A stretch of 16,164 bases of DNA from Paraspadella gotoi (GCA_051294375.1 JBJCIZ010001376.1:1-16164); one strand, 5' to 3'; shown: positions 1-16,164, counted from the first letter of the stretch. Notes: generated by a model from the sequence alone, not told the origin. Made by a program: numbers and translations.

Positions 1-620
1 GTAATACCGACGCCAGGTCATTCTGAGCTCGACGCAGACACCCATTCGCCGTCTCGCAATGATATCGAGTGCCATTTCTGTCACAAGGTCAGAACTGATG
101 TGAGAAGTGGATTAAATTTCAAGGTATATTTTATCACTGTGCTGCTCTAAAAAAGTTCAAAACGATTCGAAAATTTCTTTACTAGCGTCGCTTACACTTA
201 TTTGCATTTTAAAGGACTTCAACAAGTAAAGCAAAAAATGTTAGAAAGATGTTTAAAAGTAATTAGGTAATCGACAACTATTTGTCCCTCTCTCTTTGTC
301 TCTCTTTGCACAACTACAAAAACTCGACACGTAAGGCGCAATGTTATAATCCCGCGGGTTCATTGTGGCCGCTTCGAGAAGACACTCTTCGAAGATCTTG
401 AAGCGGTCCGTCATAGACGTAGGATAGAGTCCAATCAAGAATCTTAAAATGAAAGAATGAGGGACCGTCAGAGCTTATCCGACGGTAGCTCATTCTGCCC
501 TTGGACGAATGAAGGAGGAAGTCCGACGACCCAACCCAAGGGAACAGAAAACTTTCCAGAACCTCGGAGCAATTTTTCACTTGAGAAAGAGGCATATTCA
601 AACGAAGAATTCTCACACAA
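1..620 (+). pseudogene. Possible degenerate exons of an unidentified gene
   Basis: 1-123 is open (…IECHFCHKVR…) and ends at AAG|GTATAT. 337-623 reads ~95 codons with one internal stop after a pyrimidine tract. No recognisable family. Confidence 0.2.
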
Positions 621-2732
621 ATAAATAATTATTAAATATTACATTGTAATTTAACAACAATATAAAACTTAATTTTAAATTTAAATTACACATATATCAT
701 AAATTAAATTAAATTTAAATTTTATAAACTAAATAAAAAATAAATAAAATAAATAAATTTTAAAAATAAAAAATAAATAAAACATAGTTTAAGCCAAAAG
801 AATTCGTATTTAGGAAGTTTAATCCGCGACAATGAATACCCGCGAATACGTTCTCATAAAGAAGCAATCCTTATCACCTATAACTAAGTAAATAACAAAA
901 TTAAATATTTCTTAGTCAACCGTGAATTCGATATCTTTTCGCTAGCTCACATGTGCTTTTCCGAGCTGTGAGAATTCGAGGCTACGAATTGACCTCCGGC
1001 TAAGCCGACGATGGTTAAGGTTTGATATCAAGCCAAGACTACGCATCAACCCAGATCGCTTGGCAACTGCAGCTCCTCCAACCATGGAAATGATTACGAT
1101 CTTAAAGCAATGATCGACAGGCAATATTTCTTGCATAAATTAACCATATTAAGGAAATTTAGATTTAGCATTTAACAAATTATTTCTTTCAACAGATGCA
1201 ATCCACTCAAAACACAATACAAACACAAAAATTATCATAGATCTTAATTGAAGCCGAAAAAACGCCTTTTTTACGTTTAGCTGACTTGACAATTCTCTTA
1301 ATCGAAGTCCACGCTAACAGACAGAGCATTTTATAAATTTTTATTAATGTTTTGAAGTTTTTAGATAACAGTTTCCTAAAATTACCAGCCCAAAAACATA
1401 CTTATCTCCGGCAAATCGGTACAAGAAGATTCCCCAGAATAGTACTCCCCAGTTCCGGGATTAATTCCGGTTCAACGTCGCTGCGACAGCTTAAGGAATT
1501 ATGACGGAGCGATACCAGTAAAGAACCGACGAAAACTGTACCAAAATGAAGGTACAAAAATCGAGGGGTTGAACATGAGATCATTTTTATCAGCATTCCC
1601 GAAGTCGCTGAGAGGTTCGAAAGGGTTTAAAGAGAATAAAAATATCTTAGTTTTAGAATTAGTTTTAGTCGAGAAAAAAATCGGGGAGAAAGAAAAAAGA
1701 AGAATTTTGAAGATTTACTCTGACAGTACTTTATATGCGTTGTTTGACTATATTTAATTACATATATAATTAAAAATGGAATCAAATTATAAAGCAAACG
1801 AGAATATACCCAGTTATACAAAACGGAAAATATTTTTTTAAACAAATTATTCAAATAAGCAAAATAATCTTTTGTACTTAATTCATCTCTCATTTCTTAC
1901 CTATGATTTAAATGAAACCATATTCTTACTCGATTTCTATTTTTGCCATAATTTTGTTTTCAAATGGTATTAAAAAAATGTTTTCCCCCCCTTTTCCAAC
2001 CGCGTTTTTTCTCCTTTTGTTATACTTTTAACGGGATAATTAAGCTTCCAGAGCGAAAAGTTTTTTAAAGAATTAAACCTAGTGGTTTTGGTATTCTGTA
2101 CTTTTTTAAGTGATCTTCTACATTCAATTTAAATAGTACAAGAAGCAGTTTCGTTAAAGTCTTTTTTTCCAGGTTCTAAAGGGAAGGAAACATGAGTGAA
2201 TTGGAAACTAAAACTAGTGTCGACTTCACCGTAAATCAATTGTCCGCGTTTGAATGTCTTAATATTATTATAATATTTATTTATCAATTAATTTGTTAGG
2301 ACCGCCGGTCCGTCCTACTCCTCAAACGCCCCCGAGAATATTCCGAAGAAATATTGAGGAAACTCCTCCACCCCGGCGAGACTGTTCGTTAGTCCAGAGA
2401 TTTCTTTCATAAGGCATTATTTGGTTGGCTTGGCAGACGAGTTAAATGGTCTTCCTTTTTATTCATTGAAAGGTTTAAAAGGGTCCTTAATAAAAATATC
2501 AAAGATATAGATATTCAACAGTACAATAAGAATAAATTATTAAATTATTATTTAACACACCAAAAGATTAAAAATCAGTTTAAACTTCAAAAACCATGAA
2601 TAAACTAAGCAGAATGACCGAATGATCCAATTGATACAATCCTTTTGACGAAGTAAATGTTCGAATTCAGATATCACGATTTCGCGAGTCTTTTGGGACT
2701 CTAATAGATTGAGATATTTATTATATTCCAGG

Positions 2733-3036
2733 TATGGTGGACTCAAAATTCCACAACCGTTCATCAGCGGCCATTGGTTGCCGAGGCGTCATTCGCCTCC
2801 AACCAAGGTCGGCGGTCTAGCCGTTGGTTAACTATCAGTTAAGAGGAGTAAACACGAATGAAATGAGCTACTTCCATCGACATTTTCGCAAAAGTCTTTG
2901 ATGTATCACAAAGCGCCTGTTAAGAAAGTTTAACCCGCCTGTAAACACAGGGTTGTTACAGCCTTTGATCCGAAGTTCAGGACTGCTATATATTGAACGT
3001 TCTGTCACTAAACATAATAATAATCACTGCTCTTCA
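2733..3036 (+). repeat. 5' LTR (degenerate, ~60-bp extra segment near 2860-2925)
   Basis: Aligns by eye to 3228-3477. Confidence 0.7.
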
Positions 3037-3227: not shown

Positions 3228-3477
3228 TGTTGTGGTTGGACTAAAATCCAACAACGTCATAATATAGCGGCCATTGGATGCTGGAGGGCAAGTCGATTCG
3301 CCTCCCACCAAAGAATACCGAGGTTCTTAGCCGCGCGTGATCGACCTGGCAAGTTAAGATGGGAACGCTCAACTTAACCCGCCTGTAAACACGAGCTTTA
3401 CAGCCATGATCCGAAGCGAGACTGCTTATATTCAACGGTTCCTGTCACCTAAACATAATAATAATCATGTCTATTCA
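3228..3477 (+). repeat. 3' LTR (TG...CA)
   Basis: Starts TGTTGT right after the PPT and ends TATTCA right before the TSD. Confidence 0.72.
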
Positions 3478-5802: not shown

Positions 5803-6635
5803 ATGCCATTTAAAAGGAAAACTCAGAAACAAAAATATGTGAAACATGGTTCATATATTAAAAATGCAGATGAAAAACAAAGATCCTTAAAAAAAAGATG
5901 CAACAATGTCTACAGAGGAGGAGACAAAACGGAAGAAGATGCATCGTCCTCGTCAGAATCCTCTGCTCCTCTCCAAGCTGGAGAAGAACGTCGAGGCAGA
6001 CCATCACTTGTAGGTATCCCTCTAACTTCAGCAGAGCAAAATGAGCGAAAGCGTAAAATCTATCAAAGCAAAAAGGAGGCGAAAAGGAAAAGTGATCTAC
6101 GGCGTGAGGCTGCTTTCAAACGTTGGCGTCCAGAACTGTTCTCTGATGAGATTTCTGTAGCCGTGGAGGAAAAAGGGGGAGGCGATGCTGCAGCAGGCAA
6201 GCAGGGAAGTTCTGCGGAAATGGACGAGAGAACGGAGCCATGTCTAGATTTTGAAGATGGTGCTGATTCTGTTGAAAAAGACGTCATTTCTGTTGAAACT
6301 GGTGCTGATGGAGATTCTATGGCAATACCTTTTGGGAAGAGTCAAAGCAGTCAATCACGAGCACGGAGTTATTTCAACTCATTTTTTGTTCACCGAGATG
6401 ATTTACAGCAAGTAGATCTTCTTCGCCAATTTAGTCTTGATTTTCTCAAAAGCGGATTAAAGTTGTATGGTATTGAGGCCGTTAGAAAGAATTCCTGCTC
6501 ATCTTTATCTCATCGGCAACTTCGTTACGCTACTAGTGCGGTAATGAAAAAAATGAAAGTCAATCCCAATCTGAAAAGTTGTATTCCAACATTATTGGTT
6601 GAACGCTTCGATCTGTTGGAAAAAAAACTCGGAAG
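5803..6635 (+). CDS. Exon 1: basic/acidic N-terminus with AT-hook-like RRGRP and a basic, NLS-like helix (LTSAEQNERKRK)
   Basis: First ATG of the 287-aa ORF is at 5803; donor AAG|GTAAAT at 6636, phase 2. Confidence 0.8.
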
Positions 6636-9600
6636 GTAAATTTAAAGGGAATCAAATTCATTCATTCAATACACTCGTCTCTTTTGATTTAAAAAAAAAT
6701 TGGCCCATAAAATGAGAGATTCATTACATTTCTCTCTATTTTTATACTTCTAGGACTTTTCTTCAGTCTGCCGGACTAAGAAGAACACATGTGCAGTCGG
6801 CAAAGCGAGTCGATGAAGTTTTTGAGGAAGTTCTCTCGACGCTCCTAAGAGCCCAAGAAGAATCGTCTCGCAGTTTTGTTGTCAAGGTTGCACTTGGCTT
6901 GTGTAAAGGACTTGAACTAAAAGGATCAAGAGGAGATATTTCAATTATTGCTCAAAAAGTTGGGATTTCAAGGGGTTTTGCAAAAAAGATTATTTTTGCT
7001 TATGTCGAGGGGACTGAAAACGTCTTATACGAGAGGAAAAGATGCACCGCTTTTGAGAACACAACATGGGCCGAGAAGTTTAAAGAATTTGTTTTTAAGC
7101 CTGAGAATGCTCGCGCCGTTCCAGGTGGTAATAATTTTTTAAATTGGATATCATTACTTAGGGTTGTTGTCATTGTGATTATATAAAAGTCATTTTTGTA
7201 TTTGTCTTCTTTTTTTCTTTCTTCCTCTCTTTCTTCATTTTTTCTTTTTAATTCTCTTTCTTTCTTTCTTTCTTTCTTTTTCTTTCTCTTTCTTTTTCTT
7301 TCTTTTTTCTTACTTTTTCTTTCTCTTACTTTTTCTTTTTTTCTTTTTCCTTCTTTCTTTCTTTTTTTTACTTTTTCTTTTTCTTTTTTTCTTTCTTTTT
7401 TTTTCTTTCATTTTCTTTCTTTCTTTTTTTATTTTTTTCTATATTTTTTTTCTTTATTTTTTTTTCTTTTTTTTTTTCTCTTTCTTTTTCTCTCTGTTAT
7501 TCAATTTATTTTGACCTGAATATCCAGAGAAAAATATTTTATTAGCCGGATCTGCTTACAGAGGATTACGGCTCTATAATCCAATTTGTCGGTCAAGTCA
7601 CTTAAATCATGTCAGAACATCTAATTATGATAAACTATGAAAATGTCCGTCCGTCCAACCATCCGTCTGTACGTCCCTCCTTAGCTTTGAACGCCAAGTG
7701 GAATAGAGTTTAAATGAAAAAAACCCAGGTCACATTCTTTTTCAATTTTTAATTTTCAATCTCTTTCTCTCTCTTGGTTAAAATGATTGATTGAATGATA
7801 AGTTTGATTGATTGAATGATTGATTAATAGATTTGTTTCTTGATTTAATAAGGAATCTGTTATGATTTCCTATGTTTCTCTCTCTCTCTCTCTCTCATCC
7901 GATTACAATCTCAATCCATTTTCGATCCCAATTAATTTTATGGTAAAAACTACAGAAATCCGAGAAAGAAACTTATATAATAACAACAACAACAACAACA
8001 ACGGAATGATAATTAGGTAGCGTTCGGACCCTTTCGCTCTCGCTCTCTCTCTGTTTCTCTCGCCCTCAATACAGCTTTTCCCTTCACCGATCGCTTCGAC
8101 CTTTAAAATTATATCATCGCATCAATGAATATCATCACTTCTAATAATTAATTAATTAATTAGATCAGGCATTGTTTGCTCATACTTATTGATACTGTTT
8201 TGACTTTTCAAGGCTATGAAACAATTTCGGTTTCGCGCGGGAATCGATTGCCAAAATTTCTGACTCTCGACTCAAAAAAGAACATCGTAAAAAAATTTAT
8301 AGAAGAAACCAAATGTCCGTTTTCATTGCGGCTTCTATTGAGAGAATATCCTCGCAACATTGTTACTCCAACTCGTCGTGATATTGACCGGAATGCATGT
8401 CCAATTCACGCTAATTTTCGGTATAAACCAGTTAAATATTATTTTTTAAAAATCCGATTGATTACGTAACCAAACAAGTAACAATCTTATTACAGTAGAA
8501 AGTGGGCGGCGGGTCAACGTTGCGGTCTCATTGTTGACGATCAAGTTTCGTGCCGAATGATTGTCGCAAAATACATGTGCGACACTATTGATCCCTTTAC
8601 CCCTGCCACATGGAATGAGTCCTGTTCGACAGGAAACTGCAAACAATGTCCGGAAGTAATCTTTCCTATCCCTTTCGAATCTGAGGGTACATCAGTTTCC
8701 ATATCACTATGGACACAGAAAGAAATCAATGGGAGAAAAAAGTATGGACTTTGGCACGTTGTAAAAAAGATAGAAGAACTGGCTGCAGAACTAAAAAAGG
8801 ATATCGCAGATATGAAGCGCCACATATACACTGCAGCGGTCAGTTGGCAAAAACTTAATAACGATATAAGTCAACTTCGTCCTGGCTTAGACTTATTATG
8901 TTTCGAAGACTATCAACGTAATTTTGAAATAATCCACCGAGAGATGCCGACGTCGATGGGATATTCAGCAAATGCAATGACTCTCGCAATGTTTCCTGTT
9001 GGTTTAAAGTTTCGACGCTCATCTGAAAGTTCGAACGATTTAACACCTATAGAAAGTGGAGCAATTGTTTTTTTAACAACAGATCTTCACCACGATTGTT
9101 CCCAAGTCGAAGAGTTTGAGCGAAGGTAAAAAATATCATTAAATAAATCAATAAATAAATTAAGAATTGTGTCATGCACGTGTTTTGAGGAATCTCCCAA
9201 CAGCTGGCGCTCAGGGCTTTGGACCTGCAGTCCCCAGGTCACTGGCGTGTTTATACTAGCACCATCACACTTAACCAGCGTGACTGTGATGTGATTGAAC
9301 TTGGAACACAGTTGTTAAGCTAGTACTTAGCTTTCAAAAGCTAAAGAGACTAGCTCATTTGAATCAAACTTTACGTGTGGAGAATTTAACATATGCCACA
9401 ATGTTTTAGCGCCGCACTGCAGGACAAATTACCGCCTGTTATTTGCTAGTTTTCAGAAGTTCGGATCTGACTGTGTAGTCCGCCACTACAGGTTGGGGCG
9501 CGAACCTCAGACCGCTTGGTGAGAAGAGAGAATTCTCGGCGGTCTCAGGCAGGTGGCGATAGTTCCTTTGTTGCCACAATATAATGTTACTCAATATTTT

Positions 9601-10876
9601 TAACCCTGCCGCATTCAGACTAATGAAAATTTTTGAGGAGGAATGCTTTAGACCCACCTCATTCATTCGCTGGACTGATCAGTGCGCAGCACAATTCCGG
9701 TCTCAATATACAACACAAAACTTATTCCAAATCCGTGAAAAAGTTTCGCCGCACCTAGAGAACGTTATATTCAATTATTTCGAAAGCCATGAAGGAAAGA
9801 ATTTTTCCGATACAATTGGTGGTTTGGCCAAGCAGTCCTACGAACGAAGCATAAATCGCGGCTCAACCTTTAATGATGGCCTTGGAAATGAAGATGAAAC
9901 GGCCGATCAAGGACTTATAATCGCAGAGCAAGTAAAAGCGCGTATTCTCTCTGGACTTTCCTTTAATGGTGGACAACTTGGGGATTTTTCATTCTTCCGG
10001 TAAACAATACCTAAAAAAGAAAGTTTATTTATAAAAATACAATTTCATTTTCTTTATTAAGGATCGAGATTGTACCACCGTTTGAACGCGCGCCAAATCC
10101 CAAGGGTATTCAGATAAAAGGAATTTCTAAAATTCATTGTATCCGACTTCATGGTAAAAGTATCTTGCCAAAAAAATTCCCGTGCTTTAATTGCACTGTT
10201 TCAAAAATCTGTAGCGGATGTGAAACCGCCGATATCGCCTATTCTAAAGATGTGGATGAAGTTGCCGATAACTGTGCTGACCTTTCTCTCCCACCTACTT
10301 TTGAAGAAGATGATGGAGATAACACAGATAATGATAGCGATGGAGAAAATGACATTGGACTAGTTGAAGATGAAAAACAATTCGAGGAACAAGATGAGGA
10401 TATGGAAGTTGGCTCAATCTTGTGGGCACCCTTTAGGTTCAAACCAATAATGATATTTTTTTTTGCTTCTTATACTTTTTTTTATCCTTTGATTCTCTTT
10501 TTTCTTTATTTTTGTATCATCTTTTTTTTTCCTTTATATTTCAATTTTAATCATTTTTTTATTATTTTTTTTTATAATTTTTTGTATAATAATATTTGTT
10601 AAGAATAATTTATTAATATGCAGTGGTCGTCGTTACTTTCCTGCCAAAGTTGTTTCGCTCTTTGAGATCCCGGCTCGTCATCGACCTTATTTTACAAGGG
10701 TTTCGGATGACCGTATTCTTGTCAGTTGGATTACAGAAAATACTTTCTCAGCCGTTCGAAAATGTTGCTGTTTTCCTTTGGGAGTCACCGACCGCGACAA
10801 TATTTTTGCAGCAAAATCTCTGGAGATGAAAATTCGATACAGAGAGGCTCTAAAACTTTTAAGCAATTTGGATTGA
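5803..10876 (+). CDS. Spliced gene, join(5803..6635,6754..7124,8213..8420,8496..9125,9619..9999,10062..10436,10624..10876), ~1016 aa: Sola2-like DDD transposase with C-terminal PWWP-like domain
   Basis: Six GT-AG introns join the ORF-track fragments with phase preserved at every junction (3051 nt including TGA at 10874-10876). Motifs follow the Sola2-type order: CPIHANF, C-x4-C-x2-C (SCSTGNCKQC), FEDYQRNF (D1, 8908), TTDLHHD, WTDQCAAQFRS (D2, 9677), YFESHEGKNFSDTIGGLAK (D3, 9809), IKGISKIHCI, CFNC..CSGC, then VGSILWAPFSGRRYFPAKVV (PWWP-like). Confidence 0.85.
6754..7124 (+). CDS. Exon 2: includes an HTH-like segment (DISIIAQKVGISRGFAKKI)
   Basis: Pyrimidine tract plus TAG acceptor at 6751-6753 keeps frame into the 6791 ORF; donor CAG|GTGGTA at 7125 (alternative GTAATA at 7128, same phase 1). 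Confidence 0.8.
7200..7497 (+). repeat. ~300-nt polypyrimidine (T/C) low-complexity tract in intron 2
   Basis: Almost entirely T and C (TTTC/TTCT iterations). Confidence 0.95.
7542..7734 (+). mobile_element. Helentron/HINE-like non-autonomous element, internally deleted copy in intron 2
   Basis: TTAGCCGGATCTGCTT end, CATGTCAGAAC block and GTCCGTCCGTCC (7645-7656) match the reverse complement of 15970-16150. The tail matches the ~160-bp repeat unit. Confidence 0.7.
7877..8002. repeat. (CT)n (~7877-7896) and (AAC)n (~7982-8002) microsatellites
   Basis: Direct reading. Confidence 0.9.
8213..8420 (+). CDS. Exon 3 (GYETISVSRG...NACPIHANFR)
   Basis: TTTTCAAG| acceptor, phase 1 matching exon 2; donor CG|GTATAA at 8421. 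Confidence 0.8.
8496..9125 (+). CDS. Exon 4: Cys cluster and first catalytic Asp (FEDYQRNF)
   Basis: TACAG| acceptor (NAGNAG, CAG-TAG), in frame with ORF 8557-9129; donor AG|GTAAAA at 9126. Confidence 0.85.
9168..9578. other. GC-richer, highly self-complementary insert in intron 4 (candidate solo LTR, SINE/MITE or structured ncRNA)
   Basis: Sharp composition change relative to the AT-rich intron ends; termini TGTGTCA...TGCCACA form an imperfect inverted repeat; multiple helices listed in findings. Confidence 0.5.
9619..9999 (+). CDS. Exon 5: second and third catalytic Asp (WTDQCAAQF; SHEGKNFSDTIGG)
   Basis: TTCAG| acceptor in frame with ORF 9584-10003; donor CG|GTAAAC at 10000. Confidence 0.88.
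10062..10436 (+). CDS. Exon 6: IKGISKIHCI motif, CxxC-x5-CxxC, acidic linker, start of PWWP-like domain
   Basis: Pyrimidine tract plus AAG acceptor at 10059-10061; open frame continuous with ORF 10165; donor AG|GTTCAA at 10437. Confidence 0.82.
10624..10876 (+). CDS. Exon 7: PWWP-like domain body (SGRRYFPAKVV...ILVSWITENTFSAV...RYREALKLL*)
   Basis: TGCAG| acceptor at 10621-10623. The phase-2 frame (absent from the ORF track) stays open for about 83 codons to TGA and completes a W-A-x(5)-YFPAKV motif across the junction. Confidence 0.8.
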
Positions 10877-11179
10877 TTGCTACCCATGAAATCTAGGCAA
10901 AAATGCTGTACAAGTATTAGTACTTCTTTCACATATAATCGGTTTAAAAAAAAAAAATCATTTATTCAAAAGAAAAGAAAAAGTTTTAGTTTTAGCGGCC
11001 AAAACAATTCCGATCGCTACGATATTGTCTAATTAAGCGTGGGTGTAATCAATTTAATTCAGCTTATTCAAAAAGATAAAAATATAAAAATTTCTTAATA
11101 TGTGATATATATCGGATCATTAACAAATTGCTACCAATATTCAACAACAGTGGCAGCAAATTACAAATATATACAAATA

Positions 11180-11283: not shown

Positions 11284-11884
11284 TTGCAATCTTTTTTTCA
11301 TACTGGCATTATTTTTTTTTACTTAATCGAATAATTAATTAATCAATCAATTAAAACATTCTATGATAAACTATAAATATTAAAAAATTCAAAGTCAACT
11401 TGATTTTGTTTTTTTTTTTATCCAAAGTAAACCCATTTCCACTGCTTCATTCCATCTAAACTTTATATCTGCTAGTCACCCCACACTTTCCTTACATACC
11501 ACAAAATTTTTATTTCAATTATGATTAATCCAGAGTAACTTATGGCGTTAAAATTGTTTTAAAAAAAGATTTTAGTTAAATGTGACTTATGGTTTTTACA
11601 TATTAACTCTTTCTCAACTCGCAGAAATTTCCATTAAAATTTATATCCAACTCAACCACGCACTATCCTACCTACAACACAAAAATTTTTCAAAATAGTA
11701 ATTTGAGTTTTTGTATGGGGGTTGATGGACATCGGTTTTTTTTTTAATAATTTATCATTAATTCGATTTTCTTGACATGATTCAACTGAATGATCCGACC
11801 AAGTTTAAGGGGTTTGGACAGAGACGACAACAAAGTGATTAAGAGAGTCGGAATCTGCTGAAAAGCAGATCTGACTAAAAAAAA
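11180..11884 (-). mobile_element. Helentron/HINE-like element (long copy)
   Basis: Terminal hairpin AGTCGGAATCTGC-TGAAAA-GCAGATCTGACT plus A-run (11846-11884), two ~170-bp internal repeat units (~11420 and ~11595), and a degenerate TTGCA minisatellite. Colinear with 15110-16150. Left boundary approximate. Confidence 0.7.
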
Positions 11885-12224
11885 ACCAAACTATGGGTAA
11901 AACTATTGCTTAATATTTGTTATGCCCTGTTAGGCATCGACTACTGCTGCCTGATTCATTTCAACTGGGGCGGTCGGGAGCGTGTTATCTGTCGTTTTAC
12001 AGTGAATGGCATATATATCGTAAGATTATTTTTTCCATATCCTCGTTATATTTCAATTATTTTTCAGCCTGCCCCGATGTTTAACTTAAAATAGCAAACT
12101 TTTGAACCAAAAAAAGGTGTACAGTACTTTTCTGCATAGCCATAACTAAAAAAAGATGAAAAAAAAACTTTATTTTCGAAATAAAACAATGCAATCACCA
12201 AGAATAGTAAAAAACTAAATTTAA

Positions 12225-12390
12225 TTTTTTAGTCAGATCTGCTTATCAGCAGAATTTCGACTGTTATATTCATTTTGTTCATTCATCCGGTCCCCCTCCC
12301 AAAAAATCTTGTCGGTAATCATAACGAAGGAAGATCGAATTATTGACAAAAAAAATTATCTGTGGTCTGCTCTCCAACTGTCGTCCATTT
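12225..12390 (+). mobile_element. Helentron/HINE-like element, terminal fragment
   Basis: TTTTTTAGTCAGATCTGCTTATCAGCAGAATTTCGACT is the inverted counterpart of 11846-11880. Similarity decays by about 12390. Confidence 0.68.
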
Positions 12391-14496: not shown

Positions 14497-14741
14497 CATT
14501 TATGTGTGAATGAAAGGAAATAAAGGTTTGGGGCAAAACGCAATGAACATACGTTTAATTAATATTAAAAAATCAATTCACCGTGAAAAACAACCAAATA
14601 AGAATCATTTGCATCCAATCCAAATTGTTTTAAAAAATTTTTAGAGCCCTCTGTATCATTTATGTATGAATGAAGGAAATAAAGGCTTGGGGACAAAATG
14701 AAATAGTTAATTAATATTAAATATCAATTCATTGTAAAAAC
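14497..14741. repeat. Tandem duplication of an ~85-95-bp block with 160-bp period
   Basis: CATTTATGT(G/A)TGAATGAA(A)GGAAATAAAGG(T/C)TTGGGG starts at 14497 and at 14657. Confidence 0.85.
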
Positions 14742-14781
14742 AGAGTTGATTGCAGCAAATACATTTGTCGATCGCCTACCG

Positions 14782-15109: not shown

Positions 15110-16150
15110 AATTGCGCACGTTGCTTTTAAGATTTTTTTTAACTATGCATCATTTTCTCAACTTGCATCAGTTTTTTCATTTTGCATCATTTTTTCAAAT
15201 TATGCATCATTTTGTTCAATTGGTGCCATCATTTTTTTTCAATTGGGCGATCATTTTTATTTACACTTGCAATCATTTGCTATTCAACTGTGCATCATTT
15301 TTCAATTGCATCATTTTTTTCAACTGCTAATTCTTTTTAATATGCATCTATTTGTTCACATTAATAATTAATTAATATACATTAATTAATTAATTAATTG
15401 AATTTTAAAACATTTATTCAGTAAATCTTAAATAATAAAGATTCAAGCTAACTGTGACTGTTTTTTTCCATATTAACTTCATTTCCACTGGCACAATTCC
15501 GTCAAAACTTTATATCTAGCTGATTAATGAATTATTAATTAAATTAATTGGACCTAATTGATTAATTAACTGATTTAATTATTTGATTTATTAATACATC
15601 CTTGCATATACATTTAATATAAAAGGAAAAAGAAGCATAATCAATTAGTGAAACAGGCTTTTGTTTTTTTCCATTTAAACTCATTTCCACTCCAAACGAT
15701 TCCATCGAAACTTGATTTCCGGTTCATCACACGCACTTTCCTACCACATATAAAATTCCAGGGCCAATCGCCCCATCCATCTAATGAGCAATTGAGTTTC
15801 AAATAGTGAATTATAATCTTTTTTGTTTTTTTCCATTTAAACCAATTTCACTCGCCCGATTCCCTCGAAACTTCATATACATCTCAAATCATACACTTCC
15901 TACCCGCCACACAAAATTCATTCCAATCCATACCATGCAATCACGAGTAATTGGTGTTTTTGCTGAGGTGGGACGGACGGACGGTAATGGACGGACGGAC
16001 ATCAATTTTTTTGCATAATTTATCATTAATTACGATGGTTCTGACATGATATAAGGTTAGTGCCCGACAATTTGTAGGGGCTGGACCGCGACGGACGCGA
16101 CAAATGAATTATAGAGTCGGGATCTGCTGATAAAGCAGATCCGACTAAAA
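15110..16150 (-). mobile_element. Helentron/HINE-like element (longest copy)
   Basis: Hairpin AGTCGGGATCTGC-TGATAAA-GCAGATCCGACT-AAAA (16115-16150), (GGAC)n at 15971-16000, three internal repeat units (~15455, ~15660, ~15822) and a TGCATC minisatellite. The architecture matches DINE-1/HINE/pearl-type elements. Left boundary approximate. Confidence 0.72.
15140..15358. repeat. ~19-22-bp minisatellite, consensus AA(C/T)TGCATCATTTTTTC, about 11 degenerate units
   Basis: Recurrent TGCATCATTTT cores; a more degenerate version is at 11185-11325. Confidence 0.8.
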
Positions 16151-16164
16151 CCAATTAAGAATTG

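Follow-up and report, generated by a model that had tools for sequence, protein, structure and literature searches.

Steering of insertion by a chromatin reader encoded in cis is established for chromodomain retrotransposons, and steering by a PWWP domain is known in trans, namely from LEDGF with HIV integrase. Chromoviruses and MAGGY, whose chromodomain directs the element to H3K9me regions (bioRxiv 10.1101/2021.11.30.470311), as well as Gypsy-10_Ec32, carry a Royal-family reader C-terminal to a DDE/D enzyme, as does the locus described here; however, these are retrotransposons with a chromo or Tudor domain, whereas our locus encodes a cut-and-paste-type transposase with a PWWP domain. Gypsy integrases with chromo and Tudor domains were described in PMC12477816, the Tudor case being called there the first transposable element reported with such a domain, and the available text of that article contains no mention of PWWP; the available text of PMC5751038 likewise does not mention it. 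As in the pair of HIV-1 integrase and LEDGF/p75 (PSIP1), a PWWP domain stands beside an RNase H-type integrating enzyme, and for PSIP1 binding to H3K36me3 nucleosomes was found to proceed via histone tail and DNA together (PMC3663649). In contrast, LEDGF belongs to the host, works in trans, and has a canonical cage, while the PWWP domain of our locus lies in cis and shows Arg at the equivalent of Y18. A broad screen by Grau-Bove et al. revealed 823 gene models of transposable elements fused to chromatin domains, mostly PHD and Chromo and with DNA transposons included, and required a Pfam transposable element domain (bioRxiv 10.1101/2021.11.30.470311). In the accessible main text of that study no PWWP fusion is named, though its supplementary table could list some. 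Since the transposase core of our family matches no Pfam model (searched with the window protein and its relatives), such domain-based screens probably miss it. In the openly accessible full-text literature, no transposase or transposon encoding a PWWP domain was found, and in chaetognaths the DNMT3 copies are described as having lost their PWWP domain (PMC12460157).

Within the window, i.e., the whole stretch of 16,164 nt of Paraspadella gotoi DNA that was analysed, we identified a gene of seven exons on the plus strand (5803-10876), whose joined exons result in an uninterrupted frame of 1017 aa in the spliced translation, with the PWWP module at its 3' end (Table 1). All six introns are bounded by GT..AG, and the GC content was 39-43% in the exons and 15% in intron 6. 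Short introns and repeats are in keeping with a eukaryotic genome. The donor of intron 6 reads GTTCAA and thus departs from the GTA.. pattern of the other five, so that this splice needed a test. Two other acceptors near intron 6 led to stops after a few codons and were discarded. Relatives P0152 and P0160 align weakly to exon 1 at 5977-6150, and one contig of run X6 covers exon 3 (8211-8420).

Table 1. Features of the transposase gene and of a related fragment in the window (amino acids, aa, numbered on the spliced product)
Feature	Position	Strand	Remarks
Exon 1	5803..6635	+	aa 1-278; basic low-complexity N-terminus with GRP motif, helical region after it
Exon 2	6754..7127	+	aa 278-403; donor 7128 used, 7125 equally in frame
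Exon 3	8213..8420	+	aa 403-472; C465-x2-H468 motif, corresponding to the Sola2 CxCxxH region
Exon 4	8496..9125	+	aa 472-682; first catalytic Asp D610 at 8908-8910
Intron 4	9126..9618	+	very high-copy repeat inside, ~9186-9520
Exon 5	9619..9999	+	aa 682-809; catalytic D702 (9677-9679) and D746 (9809-9811)
Exon 6	10062..10436	+	aa 809-934; CxxC-x5-CxxC at 10183-10221, acidic linker ~10303-10401
Exon 6, first PWWP strand	10402-10436	+	includes W930, F933
Intron 6	10437..10623	+	187 nt, GT (10437)..AG (10622-10623); interrupts the PWWP domain
Exon 7	10624..10876	+	aa 934-1017; remaining PWWP, C-terminal helices, stop
Exon 7, residues		+	R936 10628-10630; R-Y-F-P 10631-10642; W969 10727-10729; E972
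Fragment of exon 7 end	14560..14657	-	inverted, diverged; 86% over 43 nt (14616-14657); also the family's alternative 3' continuation

In order to judge the splicing, six runs (X1, X5, X6, X7, X8, and X9) were compared with the window as contigs. X6 and X7 appear RNA-like, their run type being guessed on the sole ground that GT-AG introns are skipped, and, based on near-identical contigs and depths, they are probably one data set. In both, a contig of about 760 nt consists of 9913-9998, 10061-10434, and 10622-10878 with no differing letter, so that exons 5, 6, and 7 are joined on one contig that skips intron 5 (10000-10061) as well as intron 6, the latter over exactly 187 nt (GT..AG) and with 255 nt on the shorter flank of the joint. 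Intron 3 (8421-8495) is skipped in X6. The intron 6 joint was present in these two of the six runs and absent from the contigs of X1, X5, X8, and X9. The splice is also supported without RNA, since intronless relatives are collinear across the junction: their alignment stops at 10428-10437 and resumes at 10622-10628 with consecutive residue numbers (707/708 in P0009 and 915/916 in P0160). Thus, the joining of 10436 to 10624 that the first-pass annotation had proposed was borne out by the open frame, the contig, and the relatives.

The intronless relatives also join 9126 to 9617, as expected for intron 4 of the model, but splicing of this intron was not found in the X6 contigs, in which both splice sites are crossed unbroken (8495-9215 and 9423-9942). 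Retention of intron 4 would end the frame at the donor, at residue 682, ahead of D702, D746, and the PWWP domain. As rare forms drop out of contigs, we take this as a caution and not as a disproof, though a full-length message of the window copy is doubtful, since no spliced form of intron 4 was detected in the single RNA-like data set. Summed over contigs, the depth of the repeat in this intron (9186-9520) exceeds that of the exons by a factor of hundreds, and the repeat may hamper intron 4 splicing; a weak match to the Twister-P5 ribozyme was also detected in the intron (9212-9269, minus strand, E 0.024, below the cut-off). When P0001, P0002, and P0006 were aligned to window 8491-10146, the ends of their open reading frames coincided with some of the sites of introns 3, 4, or 5. 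Judged by these alignments, the closest relatives appear to have some of the window introns and not others, while distant ones are intronless, which would mean that introns were gained or lost as the clade diversified.

In regard to the identity of the C-terminal domain, the Pfam PWWP profile matched exon 7 alone at E 0.015 and 16.3 bits (profile positions 12-86 of 93), below the cut-off of 25.6 bits, with exon 7 lacking the first 11 profile positions, which would come from exon 6. The R-Y-F-P motif falls on positions 12-15 of this profile and aligned with S-W-W-P of DNMT3B. Using a family HMM built from 18 relatives, with the window protein left out, the spliced C-terminus reached 68.9 bits (positions 1-91), compared to 57.3 bits for exon 7 alone (15-91), 2.9 bits for a read-through of intron 6, and 5.2 bits for the best of 1000 shuffles. 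A search of the family profile against the PDB resulted in 19 sequences at E up to 1, every one from a PWWP-bearing protein, with the DNMT3B PWWP domain (3flg, E 3.2e-6) as the top match; a phmmer search of the PDB with exon 7 found no PWWP domain.

An AlphaFold2 model of the relative P0009, calculated from 22 alignment rows, revealed a mean pLDDT of 80.7 and displayed a five-strand barrel (strands 701-757) followed by C-terminal helices (762-785), both with pLDDT of about 80-91; these features belong to the relative and not to the window protein itself. Residues 693-788 of this model superimposed on the BRPF1 PWWP domain 2x35 with Z 11.6 (rmsd 2.3, 96 aligned) and on that of MSH6 with Z 10.4; none of the Foldseek matches of the same model reached E 0.001, although most rows were PWWP chains. 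Modelled from its sequence alone, exon 7 folded poorly (pLDDT 50.8), and fold searches with that model were uninformative and returned no PWWP structure, which is no evidence against the fold, since strand 1 is missing from exon 7. In the P0009 model the domain is preceded by an acidic linker of about 35 residues that is predicted to be disordered (659-694, pLDDT below 50). The PWWP part of the window protein is basic (net charge +6, pI 9.7), and in four of 19 relatives the net charge was zero or negative. The first-pass annotation was thereby supported in its PWWP module in cis with the DDD core, the CxxC-x5-CxxC motif and the D/E-rich spacer that it described are present, and a PWWP fold, which it had suggested checking, was predicted for P0009.

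With respect to known PWWP proteins, DNMT3B and NSD3 provided the best sequence matches in the PDB and BRPF1 and MSH6 the best structural ones, and the strand-3 Trp of DNMT3B and a nearby acidic residue aligned with the family. The family differs from DNMT3A/B, NSD3, BRPF1, and MSH6 in the loop before the motif, which in most relatives lacks one residue, in Arg at the first cage place, and in an aromatic residue after W-A-K. The nearest PWWP match says nothing of the origin of the domain.

Relatives were searched for with exon 4, which holds no part of the PWWP domain, against 1.84 billion representatives, resulting in 126 relatives. Scanning of 46 relatives chosen for their length revealed six above the Pfam PWWP cut-off (E 6e-10 to 2e-6), each with the domain at the C-terminus of one open reading frame with the core and each aligning to the gene model as far as residue 1010-1015; at E up to 0.01, 17 of 22 relatives matched Pfam PWWP. 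A second search with the family alignment as the query, which contained the PWWP domain itself, resulted in 12 out of 30 proteins with PF00855. Among 53 rows whose core match reached model residue 799, 17 end early and 36 are long enough for the domain, of which 35 matched the family PWWP profile in whole or at its start, a count that includes redundant cluster members and refers to a profile built from 18 of these rows. Eight of the 35, forming a single cluster, matched the first 40 profile positions only, and the 36th row ends within the motif. Core identity across the PWWP-keeping family was 30-45%, and the order of core, four-Cys motif, acidic linker, and PWWP domain is conserved. The family includes intact intronless proteins of about 1000 aa, which lend themselves to direct tests.

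A tree placed PWWP-bearing rows on every main branch and the window protein beside two truncated relatives; as this was a quick, midpoint-rooted tree with long branches and without Repbase Sola2 sequences, no order of events is drawn from it. Twenty clusters were looked up and originated from ENA, Logan, and JGI/IMG, with 'hypothetical protein' as the sole name. Word-based protein searches with exons 4 and 7 resulted in no hits, scans for related loci found none in viral contigs or prokaryote genomes, and a scan of metagenomes gave no locus with exon 7 and two with the family alignment. Of these, L001 is intact and intronless, while in L002, also a relative, the frame is shifted and an insertion is nested, as a transposon copy would show. 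The insertion (L002 1892-2876) has terminal inverted repeats of 29 nt and internal palindromes, and the C-terminus of L002, in which the family profile detected nothing, resembles a PWWP or Tudor barrel in diverged form. Since relatives share the same core and PWWP order, we regard the arrangement as a family design related to Sola2 and not as a one-off fusion, and consider the transposase-PWWP architecture itself secure. The first-pass annotation had described a PWWP-bearing Sola2-like fusion and had suggested looking for others: the fusion is real and its counterparts were found, but the description understated the case, given a conserved and mostly intronless family architecture.

The catalytic residues D610, D702, and D746, assigned based on the published Sola2 alignment, are intact in the window protein, with Asp found in 19/19, 18/19, and 19/19 relatives, respectively, and the four cysteines of CxxC-x5-CxxC (C850, C853, C859, and C862) were unchanged in all 19. 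The window protein is collinear with P0009, and residues 397-593 of the P0009 model resembled RSV integrase (Z 10.3), IstA (9.8), and Mos1 (9.4), indicating an RNase H-type fold. Compared by eye with Sola2 (PMC3627910, Additional file 10), the motifs SRxxPG, CxxH, CxxC, the first Asp, SDDxxHD, SDGCAxQ, and GKxxxD occur in equal order, and hhalign of the family alignment against P0116, a protein with canonical Sola2 motifs, gave 99.5% with E 1.1e-22 over 312 columns. In contrast, the family shows EDYQxN and EGKxxSD where canonical Sola2 has DFxENY and HGKxxxD, and it ends in the four-Cys motif, the acidic linker, and the PWWP domain, while the tails of Sola2 (19-547 aa) are unshown in the published alignment. 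Terminal repeats of Sola2 can be only 12-21 bp long and its target site duplication is 4 bp and AT-rich (PMC3627910). As the motifs deviate and terminal repeats and a target duplication were not found, the family was filed as no more than Sola2-related.

Human PWWP cages consist of three aromatic residues, such as Y1096, Y1099, and F1147 of BRPF1 (PMC3119473), and the cage of PSIP1 is described with M15, Y18, W21, and F44, nucleosomal DNA driving the binding (PMC3663649). Assigned by motif spacing and alignment to DNMT3B, the first canonical cage place of the window protein is taken by R936, and F939 and W969 represent the second and third. Of the aromatic cage that had been proposed for checking, the second and third places are thus aromatic and the first is not, so that the three-aromatic cage of canonical H3K36me2/3 readers is incomplete. 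This applies to the whole family: in 18 of 18 non-redundant relatives the first place is non-aromatic (R in 16, K in one, and T in one). Conversely, the residue before Pro is Y or F in 17 of the 18, a column biased by the selection pattern, strand 3 carries W or F in all 18, and D or E follows three residues on in 17 (E972 in the window). Of the 18 relatives, 15 have Y, H, or F at the place of F933, which lies three residues before R936. By motif spacing, F933 probably corresponds to M15 of PSIP1, and it may rebuild the pocket, which from these alignments would be conserved yet rebuilt across the family. The family-wide exchange of Arg for an aromatic residue would represent a variant of the PWWP pocket. 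In PSIP1, the exchange Y18A strongly reduced H3K36me3 specificity and affected binding less, according to the available text of PMC3663649. Because Arg replaces the first cage aromatic, reading of H3K36me is uncertain, and H3K36me2/3 as a ligand is a default guess by analogy.

Based on these features, we slightly favor a reading in which the gene product is a Sola2-related DDD cut-and-paste transposase whose C-terminal PWWP domain docks on nucleosomes at target capture and biases insertion. In this mechanism, the basic PWWP surface would bind nucleosomal DNA, the rebuilt pocket of F933, F939, and W969 with E972 would hold a methylated lysine, and the conserved Arg would alter or loosen mark specificity relative to canonical PWWP domains; the domain on its disordered linker would tether the transposase to the nucleosome, so that insertion sites would be biased. 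DNA transposases keeping a PWWP domain would add a natural route of chromatin-guided insertion. More tentatively, and with less than even confidence, the family could be an unannotated and widespread transposon clade that reads a histone methyl mark through the rebuilt pocket and aims its insertions. If true, this mark-reading clade would show, in a DNA transposon and within one natural polypeptide, what the LEDGF-integrase tether achieves with two proteins.

In a rival reading, which we consider less likely, the PWWP domain would be a mark-blind module for DNA binding or assembly that holds target DNA or transposon ends, in the manner of the SH3-like C-terminal domain found in retroviral integrases. 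The first cage place fits such a role, being non-aromatic throughout the family and basic in 17 of 18 relatives, as do reports that PWWP domains bind DNA unaided (PMC3663649; PMC11910589) and that two human PWWP domains are without a cage (PMC3119473). On the other hand, the three other pocket positions are still aromatic and the acidic neighbor is retained, and a linker that is long, acidic, and disordered would be more in keeping with a tether than with a rigidly built-in piece of a transpososome.

For the window copy alone, and not for the family, domestication or immobility with a role of the PWWP domain in host chromatin was weighed as well and is likewise considered less likely. All seven exons remained open despite repeats in introns 2 and 4, a search of X1 at 80-85% identity gave the core exons in one copy, long contigs of the six runs equalled the coding sequence with no other letters, and terminal repeats were not found around the gene. 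However, the catalytic triad is intact, the architecture equals that of the intronless relatives, so that nothing host-derived was added, and the PWWP part was copied around the genome. The last point is drawn from decayed copies and an inverted remnant: in X1, two more contigs, which are copies of the linker and of the start of the PWWP domain, cover 10296-10518 and differ at 18/172 and 14/210 letters (10% and 7%), one of them having a stop at W930 and an altered donor, and the fragment on the minus strand at 14.6 kb (Table 1) is likely a non-autonomous remnant, its continuation resembling a loose end at 10878 in X1. Five of the six exon changes shared by the two X1 copies lie at third codon positions, possibly a small sign of constraint prior to decay. 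As regards terminal inverted repeats, no convincing pair was detected around the window gene or in L001 and L002, which are possibly cut short; the repeat-pair search of the window gave low-complexity pairs, one pair of 15 bp taken as chance, and a pair at 11854-12253 that does not enclose the gene. Given that the searches for terminal repeats came up empty, family mobility is deduced solely from the decayed copies. The window copy has an intact frame but may have lost the ability to move; it could be either an autonomous copy residing here or a gene that was domesticated.

Self-protection of the element, by a PWWP domain that returns it to its own transcribed copies or competes with host readers against silencing, seems improbable: evasion of host suppression was proposed by Grau-Bove et al. 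for fusions of transposable elements with readers (available text of bioRxiv 10.1101/2021.11.30.470311), but direct evidence was not found, and the place beside an intact catalytic core suits targeting equally. That the resemblance arose by chance or that the splice model is wrong, to which the atypical donor and the poor fold of exon 7 alone without a PWWP structure match might point, is hardly credible and was refuted by the spliced contig, the collinear intronless relatives, the family HMM score far above the best shuffle, and the fold of P0009.

Downstream of the gene, past 10878 and thus two bases beyond the stop codon, a contig of X6, one of X8, and five of X1 diverge from the window, and 10908-11115 had no cover in X5, X6, and X8. 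The divergence at 10878-10879 may stem from a different allele, from a further copy, or from the assembly; the alternative continuation has no close match in the window, so that a simple insertion past 10878 found no support. The inverted fragment of the last transposase codons is enclosed, at 14497-14742, by a pair of direct copies that have diverged (81% over 96 nt), and this region is likely a rearranged non-autonomous remnant. A dispersed repeat family was observed in both orientations at 7582-7685, 11738-11882, 12221-12279, and 15962-16158, with 11854-11882 and 12225-12253 forming a MITE-like inverted pair of 29 nt (97%), and a second one at 11332-11680 and 15383-15919 revealed several diverged copies with very high contig depth near 11585-11660. 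Upstream, a direct repeat of about 97 nt with 83% identity was detected at 2930-3026 and 3374-3467 in a GC-richer stretch, and window 1-640 harbored short stretches that are richer in GC and resemble exons (about 1-86 and 270-620), which may be the end of a neighboring gene.
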